Assembly: GCA_963696195.1 (NCBI GenBank)
Contig: OY968826.1
Location: 2,829,101 to 2,893,100 of the forward strand
Source: an uncultured Alphaproteobacteria bacterium
GTDB lineage: Bacteria > Pseudomonadota > Alphaproteobacteria > Acetobacterales > Acetobacteraceae
DNA length: 64,000 nt
Direction: 5' to 3'
This document shows, piece after piece, positions 45,448-53,527 of this stretch. The number at the start of each line of letters is the position of its first letter. Position 1 is the first letter of the stretch. The position numbers and the translations under genes were made by a program. The notes beneath the pieces are model-generated. The model was not told the origin of the DNA, searched no databases, and was given only the letters and a program-made list of their open reading frames with translations.

Positions 45448-45487
45448 GGGGCCAGGGGACAGCGTCCCCTGGCCTTACTTACTTCCT
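45448..45487 (-). repeat. Truncated copy of the ~65-bp palindromic intergenic repeat
   Basis: Minus strand GAGGAAGTAAGTAAGGCCAGGGGACGCTGTCCCCTGGCCCC; second hairpin missing. Confidence 0.7.
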
Positions 45488-47366: not shown

Positions 47367-47966
47367 GTGTTCAACAAACGTAAGCCTGAAGAGCCGAAGC
47401 TGACCGCCGTAATTCCACCGGCCGCCGAAACCCCGGCCCCGGAAACCGACACCGCTGCCGAGCCCGAGAGCACCCCGGCCGCACCCGCTCAATCTAGTTT
47501 CAAGGAGACTTTCATGGTCCGTTCCCCCTTTACGCCGCATGTGCCCACGCCACCCCCCGGCGTTCCCGCCCGCTCCACCGTGACCAGCACCGCCGCCTCC
47601 GCCCCGCGCGAAGACGGCCAGCGCCGCACCCTGGTGGTCGGCCGCGGCATTAGCGTGCAAGGCACCGTGCAGGACGCCGAACGCCTGGTGGTTGAAGGCA
47701 CCGTGGAAGCAGCCATGATCAACGGCCTGGTGGAACTCTCCATCGCCCAGGGCGGCCTGTTCAAAGGCGAAGTCGAAGTCGACGAAGCCGAAGTCGCCGG
47801 AACCATCGACGGAACGCTCGTCGCCCGCCACGCCCTCATCGTCCGCTCCTCCGGCCGCGTGCTCGGCACCGCACGCTGCCGCCGCCTGCAGGTGGAAGAC
47901 GGCGGCCAAATCACCGGCCGCATCGAAATGCTCACCGATGCCCAAGCCGCCGGGCACGAAGACTAA
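47367..47966 (+). CDS. Bactofilin (polymer-forming cytoskeletal protein)
   Basis: MFNKRK N-terminus, Pro/Ala linker, LVVGRGISVQGTV..LVVEGTVE..GEVEV..GTIDG beta-helix. Confidence 0.88.
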   Translation: MFNKRKPEEPKLTAVIPPAAETPAPETDTAAEPESTPAAPAQSSFKETFMVRSPFTPHVPTPPPGVPARSTVTSTAASAPREDGQRRTLVVGRGISVQGTVQDAERLVVEGTVEAAMINGLVELSIAQGGLFKGEVEVDEAEVAGTIDGTLVARHALIVRSSGRVLGTARCRRLQVEDGGQITGRIEMLTDAQAAGHED

Positions 47967-47972
47967 GCGGAG

Positions 47973-48035
47973 GAAGTAAGGCCAGGGGGTGCTACCCCCT
48001 GCCCCCCCGCCAAAGGCTCGCCTTTGGAATCCATT
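47973..48035 (+). repeat. Full copy of the ~65-bp two-hairpin intergenic repeat
   Basis: GAAGTAAGGCCAGGGGGTGCTACCCCCTG-CCCCCCCG-CCAAAGGCTCGCCTTTGG-AATCCATT. Confidence 0.8.
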
Positions 48036-48258
48036 CTCCAGCAGGGCGCCCAAGGAATATGACGATGCGATTGTGCGGCTGCGGCTGCGGCAGGCGTTTG
48101 GGCGGCTCATTCGCCGGGCCGATGACCGGGGCGTGTTCGTGCTGCTGGACCGGCAGATACCCTCACGGCTGCTGAGCGCGTTCCCCGAGCGGGCGCCGAT
48201 CATCCGCTCCGGGCTGGCCGAGGCGGTGGTGGGGATACGGCGGTTTTTGGAGGGGTGA
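48036..48258 (+). pseudogene. Orphan 3' fragment (~73 codons) of a DinG-family helicase
   Basis: YDDAIVRLRLRQAFGRLIRRADDRGVFVLLD (helicase motif VI region, QxxGRxIR) with native-looking stop; no 5' part. Confidence 0.75.
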
Positions 48259-48280
48259 GGTGGTGGTGAGGGTGGCTTAA

Positions 48281-48323
48281 CGGACGCAAAGGTGGCGGAA
48301 TGCGCTTCGCTTTTCCGCCCTAC
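48281..48323 (-). repeat. GTAG-class REP, copy 1
   Basis: Minus strand GTAG-GGCGGAAAAGCGAAGCGCATTCCGCC followed by ACCTTTGCGTCCG. Confidence 0.75.
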
Positions 48324-48332
48324 ATTGCTGTA

Positions 48333-48734
48333 TTAATTGGCGGCTTCGGCCAGAATTTTCTCGCGGGCCGCGCTGGCGATGAAACCGGAGCGGGTTAAAC
48401 CGCGCTGTTGCGCGGCACGGTCGATCTCCGCCAACAAGGCGGCATCCAGGGACAGATTGGCCCGCACGGGGCGCCCGCTGTCGAGCAGAACGGGGATATT
48501 GACGATAACCTCGTTCGCCTGAACCTCCTCGCGCATAATGCGGTCGAGGGGGGTCGGCGCGGGAAGAGCAAAGCCCTTGCCCGCCCGATGTTCGGCCCAT
48601 TCCCGCGCCGCGGAGATGGCATCGGCAAGCGCCTCATCAGGATTGCCGCCGCCACCGTGGCAACCGGGAAGATCGGGAACCCGAACCCCCCAGCTGTCTC
48701 CGCTGCCATCCAAAATCCCATAAAACTGCGCCAT
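48333..48734 (-). CDS. hicB: HicB family antitoxin with C-terminal RHH
   Basis: WGVRVPDLPGC, DEALADA, RANLSLDAALLAEIDRAA..TRSGFI. Confidence 0.9.
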   Translation of the reverse strand: MAQFYGILDGSGDSWGVRVPDLPGCHGGGGNPDEALADAISAAREWAEHRAGKGFALPAPTPLDRIMREEVQANEVIVNIPVLLDSGRPVRANLSLDAALLAEIDRAAQQRGLTRSGFIASAAREKILAEAAN

Positions 48735-48748
48735 CTTGCTTTACCTTT

Positions 48749-48955
48749 TTAAATCCACCCGGCTTGCTTTGCGATCAAGCGCGCAACGCCTGGGGATAAT
48801 ACCTTGTGCCGGGGCACAACAATCAACATTTCTGGCCGGGCGGGGTGTTCGTACTTGTCGTGTTTTCCACCTCCCACACTCACCCAGCCATCAGCCTTTA
48901 AGCGGTCGGTAACCTTGCGGGTGTTTGTCTCGGTCACGTTTAACCATTCCTGCAA
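48749..48955 (-). CDS. hicA: HicA family mRNA interferase toxin (start may be GTG 48937)
   Basis: LKADGW..GGGKHDKYEHP..IVVPRH..LSPGVARLIAKQAG; directly upstream of hicB. Confidence 0.88.
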   Translation of the reverse strand: MQEWLNVTETNTRKVTDRLKADGWVSVGGGKHDKYEHPARPEMLIVVPRHKVLSPGVARLIAKQAGWI

Positions 48956-49022
48956 AAAACATCGTCATTTGTCCTCGCCTAATCTAAACTGGTAAATTCC
49001 AGTCCGGTCCCCTCAGGCATAT

Positions 49023-49085
49023 GCGCAAATAATTCGCAATTCCGTTGTGACATACAAGCGCTAAATGCGCAAGTATTTGCGCAAC
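49023..49085. promoter_or_regulatory. Inverted repeats upstream of hicA, probable HicB operator
   Basis: TGCGCAAATA near 49023 inverted at TATTTGCGCA; the distal site is itself TGCGCAA-GTAT-TTGCGCA. Confidence 0.5.
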
Positions 49086-49121
49086 GCCAGTCTTGTGGCC
49101 CAGCTATTTAATGTGGCGTAG

Positions 49122-49156
49122 CGGACGCAAAGATGGCGGAATACGCTTTTCCGCCC
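49122..49156 (-). repeat. REP copy 2 (direct repeat of copy 1, 5-bp deletion, GTAG tail lost)
   Basis: CGGACGCAAAGATGGCGGAATACGCTTTTCCGCCC vs CGGACGCAAAGGTGGCGGAATGCGCTTCGCTTTTCCGCCC. Confidence 0.75.
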
Positions 49157-49159
49157 GGC

Positions 49160-49600
49160 TCAAACGAACCGGAGAATACCCTTATCCGCCCAGTATATCA
49201 GGGCAAGGCAAAAACATGCTGTGTATAGCGCCGCCATACCACTCACATAGCCTGACTGATCCAAGAGATACATCACGGATGCTGCGGTAGCAGCTGCAAG
49301 AGTTATAAATTTCTTTGCGCTCCATCCCACCATTTTATATTCTTGGAGAGTAGGCTTTTCATCCACCACCTCCGCCTCGTCGCCCGATCCAGCAGCTAAC
49401 TGCTTGAAGGTTTTTTCCCGGTTTTTATGCAGGCCTCGTCCGATCACACCATTCAGGAGAAGGGCAAGAATGCACACCCCCAGCAGTTTCCAATCAAACC
49501 GGAACAGAGCAACTAGCGTCAACCCGGTCATGATAGCTTGGAACATATAGAGCGCCCGCAGCTCAAATCGGCGCTCCAGAGCAAAGAGGGCTTGGCTCAT
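49160..49600 (-). CDS. Hypothetical 4-TM membrane protein, AT-richer than host genes
   Basis: 146-aa ORF with two pairs of hydrophobic helices; no family recognised. Confidence 0.6.
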   Translation of the reverse strand: MSQALFALERRFELRALYMFQAIMTGLTLVALFRFDWKLLGVCILALLLNGVIGRGLHKNREKTFKQLAAGSGDEAEVVDEKPTLQEYKMVGWSAKKFITLAAATAASVMYLLDQSGYVSGMAALYTACFCLALIYWADKGILRFV

Positions 49601-50023
49601 GATTATTTTCTATATTGGTCGAGCGTTCAGGGCGGAGGCTATGTGCTAACGAGAGGAGTTCCGCTTACTTTTGCGGGAATACTTGCGGCTAAAGTGTATC
49701 AGCCTTCGGTTCCGCGACGGGTCTACGTCAGGCTGACTTGGCGTGCGGCCATAGCTACCGTCTTTGCCCGGGGCATTAGCCACGGTCTTGTCATTGCCCG
49801 GAAACTCATCATCATTCATATCGGTCACCAGCATTATGCTACTATTTAATTATACTACGATTGTGACATACCCAGCCAGAAAATTCGCAAATCTTAATGG
49901 TTGCTACGCTATGCCCCCGCCTTGACTCTCCCACCCCCCGGTTCTAGGGGGGGGCAGAATATCGTCCGCCGTGCTGCGAGGGTTCGCACCACGGCGTGTT
50001 TTGCGTTGTGAGGGTGGTAGAGC

Positions 50024-51397
50024 ATGTTCGACACGCTGTCGGGCAAATTAGGTGAGGTTTTTGACCGGCTCCGCCGCAGGGGGAGCTTGTCCGAGGCGGA
50101 TGTGGCCGAGGCGCTGCGGGAAATCCGCCTGGCGTTGCTGGATGCTGACGTCGCGTTGCCGGTGGTGAAAGACTTTATCGCCACGGTGAAGGAAAAATCC
50201 GTGGGCGCGGAAGTGCTGCGCTCGGTCTCGCCGGGGCAGATGGTTGTCAAAATCGTCAACGATGCGCTGGTTGAGGCGCTCGGCGGCACGGTGGTGCCGA
50301 TCAACCTGCTGGCCCCCTCGCCTATTCCCATCCTCATGGTTGGTTTGCAGGGTTCGGGTAAGACCACGACCTCGGGCAAGCTGGCGCTGCGGCTGCGCAC
50401 GCGCGAGCGCAAAAAAGTGCTGCTGGCGAGTTTGGATACGCAGCGGCCGGCGGCGCAGTTGCAGTTGGAGCAGTTGGCGCAGCGCGCCGAGGTAGCCAGC
50501 CTGCCGATTATCGCCGGGCAGACGCCGATGCAGATTGCGCAGCGGGCCATGGATGTGGCGCGGCGCGAAGTTTTTGACGTGGTGATTTTGGATACCGCGG
50601 GGCGGCTGTCCATCGACGCGGCGCTGATGGAGGAGGTGAAATCCATCCGGTTTGCCGTGAACCCGGTGGAAACGCTGCTGGTGGTCGACGCCATGACCGG
50701 CCAGGACGCGGTGACCACCGCCACCGCCTTTAACCAGGCGCTGGGGATTACCGGCATTGTGATGACCCGCCTCGACGGCGATGCCCGTGGGGGTGCGGCG
50801 CTCTCGATGCGCGCGGTGACCGGCGCGCCGATCAAGCTGGCGGGTACGGGCGAGAAGCTGGATGCGCTGGATGAGTTCAACCCGGAGCGGATTGCCGGGC
50901 GGATTCTCGGCATGGGCGACATTGTCGGCCTGGTGGAGCGGGCGGCGCAGAATATCGACCAGGTGGAAGCCGAGAAGCTCGCCAAGCGCATGGCGAAGGG
51001 CAAGTTCGACCTGGACGATTATGCCTCGCAGTTGAAGCAGATTTCCAAAATGGGGTCGCTGTCGGGGATTCTGGGCATGTTGCCCGGCGTCGGCAAGATC
51101 AAGAAGCAGATCGAGGATGCGAACCTCGATACCACCATGTTCAAGCGTCAGGCCGCGATCATCAGCTCGATGACCAAGGCCGAACGCCGCAATCCGGATT
51201 TGTTGAAGGCCAGCCGCAAGAAGCGGGTGGCGGCGGGGTCCGGGACATCCGTGCAGGAGGTCAACAAGCTGCTGAAACAGTTTGATGACATGTCCACCAT
51301 GATGAAACGCATGAATAAAGCCGGCGGCCAGGAGGCGATGATGCGCCAGATGCAGGCCGCGATGGGGGGCGCCAAAGGAGGGCGCCGGCCGTTTTAA
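50024..51397 (+). CDS. ffh: Signal recognition particle protein
   Basis: GLQGSGKTT, DTAGR, TRLDGDARGG, M-domain. Confidence 0.97.
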   Translation: MFDTLSGKLGEVFDRLRRRGSLSEADVAEALREIRLALLDADVALPVVKDFIATVKEKSVGAEVLRSVSPGQMVVKIVNDALVEALGGTVVPINLLAPSPIPILMVGLQGSGKTTTSGKLALRLRTRERKKVLLASLDTQRPAAQLQLEQLAQRAEVASLPIIAGQTPMQIAQRAMDVARREVFDVVILDTAGRLSIDAALMEEVKSIRFAVNPVETLLVVDAMTGQDAVTTATAFNQALGITGIVMTRLDGDARGGAALSMRAVTGAPIKLAGTGEKLDALDEFNPERIAGRILGMGDIVGLVERAAQNIDQVEAEKLAKRMAKGKFDLDDYASQLKQISKMGSLSGILGMLPGVGKIKKQIEDANLDTTMFKRQAAIISSMTKAERRNPDLLKASRKKRVAAGSGTSVQEVNKLLKQFDDMSTMMKRMNKAGGQEAMMRQMQAAMGGAKGGRRPF

Positions 51398-53405: not shown

Positions 53406-53510
53406 GCAAGGTTAGGGGGTCTCTGCCTCCCAAAACTCGTAACTAATGGATTCCAAAGGCTAGCCTTTGGCGGGGGTCCAGGGGGGCAGAGCCCCTTGGC
53501 CTTCCTTACT
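53401..53510. repeat. Inverted pair of the ~65-bp repeat: degenerate forward half-copy (53401-53431) plus full reverse copy (53445-53510)
   Basis: Reverse complement AGTAAGGAAGGCCAAGGGGCTCTGCCCCCCTGGACCCCCGCCAAAGGCTAGCCTTTGGAATCCATT closely matches 47973-48035. Confidence 0.8.
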
Positions 53511-53527
53511 CAGGAGGACCAGCTTCG

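Follow-up and report, generated by a model that had tools for sequence, protein, structure and literature searches.

The window analyzed here is a 64,000-nucleotide stretch (C1:2829101-2893100) of the genome of an uncultured alphaproteobacterium of the family Acetobacteraceae, a genome that consists of a single contig of 2.91 Mb with 61.3% GC. Within this window, upstream of the ffh gene, two AT-rich gene modules each end at a copy of the same repetitive extragenic palindromic (REP) sequence. Read along the minus strand, the order is an AT-rich leader, a gene for a protein with four putative transmembrane helices (4-TM gene), REP copy 2, a second AT-rich leader, the hicA-hicB gene pair and REP copy 1. 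The ffh gene starts at 50024 on the plus strand and is divergent from both modules. An earlier note on this DNA had described the array and read it as an integron-like, REP-delimited system of cassette capture. Every part of the array was found where the note had placed it; the reading of these parts is revised below.

Module 1 opens with a leader of 303 nt (49601..49903, minus strand; GC 0.485) and continues into the 4-TM gene (49160..49600, minus strand; 146 aa, GC 0.51), which ends at a TGA stop codon (49162-49160). The second module is preceded by an AT-rich stretch of 157 nt (GC 0.452) between REP copy 2 and hicA, composed of a 9-mer that is described below and the hicAB leader proper (48956..49103, minus strand; GC 0.452), in which palindromes TGCGCAAATA.../...TATTTGCGCA are present. 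The hicA toxin gene (48749..48955, minus strand) encodes 68 aa from a TTG start codon, with an alternative GTG start at 48937, and the hicB antitoxin gene (48333..48734, minus strand) encodes 133 aa with a HicB fold and a C-terminal ribbon-helix-helix (RHH). Two measurements bore out the earlier description. Both leaders (GC 0.485 and 0.452) are AT-rich compared to the genome (0.613), and the last stop codon of each module, said to lie 3-10 bp from a REP, was found 3 nt from copy 2 for the 4-TM gene and 9 nt from copy 1 for hicB.

The two REP copies differ in completeness. Copy 1 (48272..48332, minus strand) is the resident REP of the locus and is composed of a left flank (TACAGCAAT), GTAG (48323-48320), a hairpin, AYCTTT and the native 3' flank of a gene with a Hint_2 domain; it reads GTAGGGCGGAAAAGCGAAGCGCATTCCGCC and folds as a hairpin, as had been noted before. 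Copy 2 (49113..49156, minus strand) carries GCCG where GTAG is expected and has a GGCGGAA/TTCCGCC hairpin with a loop 5 nt shorter than that of copy 1, followed by AYCTTT, the native Hint-gene 3' flank and CTACGCCAC, the latter corresponding to the final two Hint-like codons plus stop on the plus strand. Both copies fold into the expected hairpin, for which the chance expectation of the pattern in the window is 0.01. When aligned, copies 1 and 2 match over 13/13 nt and 32/36 nt (89%) at a spacing of 836/841 nt. We refer to this repeated block of REP and flank as unit B.

The origin of copy 2 is indicated by what follows its hairpin. Alignment of the Hint 3' ends of five genomes revealed that the native Hint stop codon and 3' flank make up GCGTCCGYTARGCCAC, the tail common to both local copies. 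The congener designated G016 reads GTGGCTTAACGAGCAAG at this flank without any REP there, and the flank of G002 aligns as well. That the shared tail belongs to the REP element itself was considered and rejected; only AYCTTT recurs 3' of the hairpins of other REP copies, and the remaining 16 nt are specific to the locus and were not found at other genomic copies. The orthology of copy 1 to the G002 REP extends to both flanks, with ACAGCAA(A)TGTAG shared on the left and the Hint flank on the right. Copy 1 directly precedes GGTGAGGTGGTGGTGAGGGTGGCTTAA (GEVVVRVA*, plus strand), the end of the Hint_2-domain gene, which encodes 539-542 aa in relatives. Copy 2 has neither the GTAG nor the left flank. 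Thus, from the shared native flank and Hint codons, copy 2 is a partial duplicate of the resident chromosome. Judged by its sequence, the second REP copy is a local segmental duplication of REP, flank and two Hint codons, and is neither a transposed REP nor a site borne on a cassette. The claim that the REP is a cassette-carried site gives way, on this evidence, to a resident chromosomal REP that was duplicated along with its native flank and the final part of the Hint gene.

The same flank bears on the simplest alternative, namely that two REPs were inserted independently behind two independently inserted genes. REPs of this family do habitually lie just after stop codons, as such a coincidence would require. 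However, at least 16 nt of locus-specific flank are common to both copies and absent from all others, and with ~18 copies in 2.9 Mb far fewer than 1% of copies should have a same-strand neighbor within 1 kb. The shared native flank already contradicts a coincidence of this type, which we regard as extremely improbable.

A short repeat was also detected at the 5' side of the modules. The 9-mer ATTAAATAG abuts copy 2 (A2; 49104..49112, minus strand) and is found once more in the module 1 leader (A1; 49850-49842), a recurrence with a chance probability of ~0.003 by 50,000 mononucleotide shuffles. The 53 nt between A1 and the left edge of the foreign DNA include motifs GTATGTCACAA and TTGCGAATT, both of which are also present in the hicAB leader. 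Beyond the REP with its flank and these short motifs, no significant similarity between modules 1 and 2 was detected by BLAST. With a 9-mer shared at the 5' side and a REP plus flank shared at the 3' side, the layout of the locus is [A-4TM-B][A-hicAB-B].

This layout could also be read as an insertion, in which a 729-bp segment (4-TM gene, REP copy 2 and flank) from the locus of another strain entered the hicAB leader in a transposition-like event and duplicated a 9-bp target (ATTAAATAG). Perfect 9-bp direct repeats flank exactly this 729-bp segment. The presence of GTATGTCACAA and TTGCGAATT both in the hicAB leader and in the 53 nt that separate A1 from the GTAG junction would be expected if these had once formed a single leader. 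Against this, no terminal inverted repeats were seen by eye and no transposase gene is present in the 729-bp segment, the segment ends within the Hint-gene remnant, and the 9-mer could instead mark the boundary of a duplication. To our knowledge, no element would carry the end of a Hint-gene remnant. We consider such an insertion doubtful.

At the left edge of module 1, the region 5' of ffh is conserved down to catagcGTAG, of which the GTAG (49904..49907, minus strand) is the remnant of a REP that is intact in G013 and G016 (catagcGTAGGATGGGT...). Homology to relatives stops at this point, and AT-rich foreign DNA begins at 49903. Four congeneric species retain the order helicase, Hint gene, gap and ffh, and the content of the gap is different in each. 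In G022 the gap, from Hint stop to ffh, is empty and 97 nt long. The gap of G013 includes a gene for a 98-aa orphan protein followed by an inverted REP pair; that of G016 includes a REP pair followed by a gene for a 186-aa orphan, separated at its end from the Hint stop by 13 nt that contain no REP. In G002, a REP pair precedes an orphan open reading frame (ORF) with a maximum length of 192 aa (170 aa if counted from the start chosen for the Pfam search) and a REP of the GGCGGAA subtype, the latter orthologous to copy 1. No Pfam family was matched by the gap occupants of these relatives. The source genome adds a fifth content, with the 4-TM module, REP copy 2, the hicAB module and REP copy 1. 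With five contents in five species, the gap is a genuinely variable hotspot. In more distant congeners, helicase and ffh lie apart, and no REP was found in the ffh-upstream regions of two of them (G004 and G014); the lack of helicase-ffh adjacency makes the hotspot clade-specific. The variable content that the earlier reading would predict for the locus upstream of ffh is therefore found, as it differs in 5/5 species compared, but not every occupant is bounded by REPs, as those of G013 and G016 have no trailing REP.

The modules themselves were characterized by homology. The 4-TM protein has four hydrophobic segments, taken by eye as transmembrane helices. Neither the 62 congeners, in which no homologue was found, nor the species-representative genomes covered by a pattern-based contig search, in which no relatives were found, extended its family. 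Two metagenomic relatives of similar length and 48-50% identity were identified (L049 1127-1564 and L050 721-1161), the neighbor genes of which are unannotated, and 31 sequences (query included) were found at E<=0.001 among 1.8 billion cluster representatives. Members share a strongly conserved motif at the N-terminus, MSQALFALERRFELRALY, after which come two pairs of hydrophobic helices separated by a charged linker. On these comparisons, the 4-TM gene represents a real, rare and unannotated family. It had been called an orphan, which holds for its rarity but not in the strict sense.

The hicA and hicB genes are adjacent and co-oriented with a gap of 14 nt, and their products matched Pfam families HicA_toxin (PF07927, 3.9e-11) and HicB_lk_antitox (PF15919, 3.7e-20), with an additional weak RHH match. 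An inverted repeat in the leader (49022-49034 / 49071-49083) is operator-like, and the leader palindromes are conserved with G046, another species. Based on these features, hicA-hicB is predicted to be an intact type II toxin-antitoxin operon that has operator palindromes of its own. That HicAB stabilizes the array, as the earlier note had proposed, is speculative. The closest hicB homologue, in G046, is 86% identical at the amino acid level, is the sole high-identity match among congeners and is encoded in a low-GC, mobile-looking context; a pattern-based contig search for hicB returned one metagenome-assembled genome only (labelled Acetobacteraceae). DNA homology to G046 begins in the leader near 49020-49025, runs to the hicB stop codon and then ends. 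In G046, hicB is followed by a separate AT-rich terminator hairpin and not by a REP, and thus the hicAB module travels without a REP, in contrast to the proposal that module and REP form one cassette unit. With no 4-TM homologue in congeners, hicB in one congener only and both modules low in GC, the two modules are foreign to this genome. A scan for consensus promoters found no strong site on the minus strand, where each module has its own AT-rich leader.

We next turn to the REP family and its nuclease. By the strict pattern GTAGGRYGGRNNAGCGNAGCG, 8 matches were found in this genome, 0-23 in the 62 congeners and 0 in a reversed-pattern control; relaxed searches gave ~18 copies in this genome, 7-9 of which are of the GGCGGAA subtype. 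This copy number is low for a REP family. A gene for a REP-associated tyrosine transposase (RAYT) of 196 aa, with REPs on its flanks, is present in G013 and scored 210 bits on NCBIfam REP_Tyr_transpos (NF047646; cut-off 80). RAYTs above the cut-off were detected in 10/63 genomes of the genus, with the source genome not among them, and no RAYT or remnant was found in the whole source genome by PF01797, NF047646 or tblastn with the G013 RAYT. On the basis of these profile and homology searches, the REP family is served by a RAYT at the genus level only, and the link between REP and RAYT does not hold within this genome.

GTAG REPs often abut ORFs or provide their stop codon (Di Nocera 2013, PMC3733652). 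In this genome, the GTAG end lies 8, 10, 24 and 31 nt past the stop codons of GST, CYTH-CHAD, COX1 and RlmN genes, respectively, the COX1-associated REP being located between ctaD and ctaB. In G056, two direct REPs enclose a core-like gene of high GC. Since core and accessory genes alike precede REPs at short distance, the presence of a REP 3-10 bp past a stop codon is a habit of the family and not the mark of a cassette, as which it had been taken. The earlier note had also set an abundant REP, placed evenly after core genes, and an invariant locus against its own reading; REPs do follow core genes, but the family is low-copy and the content of the locus varies among species.

Other members of the family were seen in a range of settings. 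Over 32-34 nt, the copy 1 hairpin matches C1:684402-684435 and 2569540-2569571 (after the GST gene and between ctaD and ctaB, respectively) at 100% identity, which points to recent spread or to gene conversion although no RAYT is present. At C1:2009800-2010270, a gene for a 116-aa LMWPc-like phosphatase is part of an island of low GC close to an integrase; the gene is bracketed by direct REPs at a distance of 408 nt from each other (C1:2009833-2010241), and its stop codon is the TAG of the downstream GTAG. A second toxin-antitoxin module beside a REP, a pair of TacA-like antitoxin and GNAT toxin genes, was found at C1:2792742-2793604, with the REP 56 nt downstream in opposite orientation. In G013 (L052, C67, 970-2000), a T5orf172/MUG113 ORF lies between two direct REPs, and a third REP follows a ~80-nt duplicate of the 3' end of a convergent neighbor gene of 309 aa (citE-like by eye); this duplicate is another REP-adjacent copy of native flank, comparable to the one described here. 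An inverted REP pair surrounds a single gene for a 316-aa glycosyltransferase-like protein with lower GC at third codon positions (C1:411676-412752), and the two genes next to it we take, by eye, to be thiD and glmM.

The positions of the junctions bring in a further alternative, the idea of the earlier note, in which a RAYT, since lost or acting in trans, captured the modules by joining gene fragments at REPs used as single-strand recombination sites and so built up an array of genes and REPs. The boundary of the foreign DNA (49904/49903) directly follows the GTAG of a REP that relatives have in intact form, copy 2 starts at the foot of its hairpin, and both hairpins are followed at 2-3 nt on the 3' side by a CT dinucleotide, the motif known to be cleaved by TnpA-REP (PMC8266576). 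In addition, RAYTs exist in congeners, and direct REP pairs recur around small foreign ORFs, as for the LMWPc-like gene (C1:2009833-2010241) and the T5orf172 ORF of G013. TnpA-REP cuts at CT/CA sites, with the GTAG serving as guide and not as cut site (Corneloup 2021, PMC8266576), but these published sites do not match the borders of the duplication; the repeat unit runs at least 16 nt past the CT into native flank and includes Hint codons. Nor do the other data fit well, as the source genome has neither a RAYT nor a remnant of one, the hicAB homologue of G046 is without a REP, core genes precede REPs equally, and the occupants of G016 and G013 have no trailing REP. We view capture by a RAYT as distinctly unlikely.

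The integron comparison fares no better. IntI was not found in the genome; the best match to TIGR02249 scored 74 bits against a cut-off of 265, and the matches are generic tyrosine recombinases. A tyrosine recombinase is encoded at about 60.6-61.1 kb of the window. The earlier statement that IntI and RAYT are missing from the window was confirmed and extends to the whole genome by profile searches and tblastn. An integron-like or RAYT-driven capture system would thus have no recombinase to drive it, with RAYT and IntI both absent from the genome, and the integron-like, RAYT-based reading is largely unsupported.

We favor instead, at a probability of about 0.6, a hypervariable intergenic hotspot at which two modules were stacked by host recombination at a homology patch that includes a REP. 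In this clade of an Acetobacteraceae genus, the hotspot lies between the Hint_2-domain gene, downstream of a DinG-like helicase gene, and the ffh promoter. The two modules, the rare 4-TM gene and hicA-hicB, would have been acquired independently, each with its own promoter. The resident REP is a member of the genus-wide GTAG family, the RAYT of which may have been lost here, leaving the REPs as immobile relics that, by analogy, probably act as 3' RNA hairpins after stop codons. A block of 44-52 nt (REP hairpin, native 3' flank and last Hint codons) would have been duplicated as the modules were combined. Most likely, two alternative alleles of the site that shared left and right flanks were joined in tandem by host recombination. 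Possible routes include integration of a circularized or illegitimately joined allele fragment via the patch of REP and flank homology, as well as homology-facilitated illegitimate recombination. Deletion of the Hint gene and truncation of the helicase gene would have followed.

Several observations weigh against stacking by host recombination. The left edge of the foreign DNA lies exactly after the GTAG, and copy 2 starts exactly where a GTAG is due; a REP-directed nuclease could explain such exact junctions better than random recombination. Only two units exist in the array, and the 9-mer statistic is post hoc. In addition, 4/36 nt are mismatched between the two B copies, which also differ by an indel. 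The divergence of the B copies means that the event is not recent or that the copies are from different lineages. A metagenome contig, 99.9% identical over 2.4 kb, has the same arrangement and ends inside copy 1. In this contig and the species-representative genomes, a sample that reveals no within-species polymorphism, alleles with A-X-B alone or A-Y-B alone (X and Y being the two occupants) were not found. As to the proposed 3'-hairpin role, no T-tract after the REPs was detected by consensus terminator scan, and the RNA fold z-scores of the REP regions are unremarkable and not significant (-0.3 to -1.6).

The side of the locus distal to ffh has also been remodeled. A remnant of the Hint_2-domain gene (48254..48280, plus strand), comprising the last 8 codons and stop (GEVVVRVA*), is joined, at a microhomology of GGGGTGAG, to the stop codon of a truncated DinG-like helicase gene of which only the 3' end is left (48035..48259, plus strand), and the rest of the Hint gene is deleted. 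The helicase fragment is identical at 222/225 positions to the end of the full-length gene (genome 344547-344771), and a copy of a ~60-nt double-hairpin repeat (47963..48035, no strand assigned) lies at the breakpoint between the bactofilin gene and this fragment. Thus, based on the truncated helicase, the Hint remnant and the repeat at the breakpoint, the locus was rearranged several times. The helicase 3' end is present twice in the genome (window 48035-48280 and C1:344547-345000), and the 344-kb locus has the full helicase gene, next to which only ~70 nt from within the Hint gene are left before transposase-like remnants begin. These differences imply that the helicase-Hint region was once duplicated and that the two copies decayed differently. 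The double-hairpin repeats (AAGTAAGGCCAAGGGGCnCTGCCCCTTGG...CGCCAAAGGCTCGCCTTTGGAATCC) form a separate family with ~20 copies in this genome, also found in congeners, and with copies in the window at 47963-48035, 53445-53511 and 45448-45483.

Taken together, the locus is ordinary REP biology at an insertion hotspot and a modest structural curiosity. As it stands, it provides a well-resolved case of known things, namely low-copy GTAG REPs that outlived their RAYT, a HicAB module and a small hotspot beside ffh. It is also cautionary, as a periodicity of gene plus REP can come from the stop-codon habit of REPs and one local duplication. What interest remains is in the exact placement of junctions at REP boundaries and in the [A-X-B][A-Y-B] layout; their recurrence in population data would implicate REPs as patches of recombination through which accessory genes are swapped. 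That in this genus a REP with a short native flank forms a portable recombination patch, which stacks or exchanges hotspot occupants, possibly after cutting by a RAYT, and so makes a primitive REP-based cassette array, we regard as a long shot.

Compared to integron arrays, the locus has a similar periodicity of gene plus structured site, a toxin-antitoxin module in the array and variable content at a fixed site. By contrast, integrons have IntI, which is absent here, and only two units are present. The attC site of integrons is carried by the cassette, whereas the site here is a REP hairpin of 26-30 nt plus chromosomal flank; integron cassettes are mostly promoterless and served by the common promoter Pc, whereas each module here has its own putative promoter region. 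The hicAB module is similar to type II HicAB systems in having hicA upstream of hicB, both Pfam domains, a C-terminal RHH in HicB and palindromic operators in the leader, and no unusual feature was seen in it at the level of sequence.

GTAG-type REP/RAYT systems, REPtrons and bacterial interspersed mosaic elements are said to have been described by Nunvar in 2010. As in such systems, the REPs here have a 5' GTAG followed by a GC-rich hairpin, are intergenic and lie a few bases past stop codons as singles, inverted pairs and clusters, and one RAYT gene flanked by REPs is found in congeners. They differ in number (about 8-18 copies per genome vs hundreds in classical cases), in a source genome without a RAYT and in one local copy without GTAG, and the local pair is the product of a duplication that took in the REP with its native flank, not of REP mobilization.

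Integration hotspots between conserved genes have differing small accessory genes in the same gap, with microhomology at junctions and short duplications. The locus is similar to these hotspots, and to known products of homology-facilitated illegitimate recombination, in its variable gap occupants, microhomology and short duplications. It is set apart from them by the nature of the duplicated patch, a REP with 16-20 nt of flank, and by the presence of two alternative occupants in tandem.

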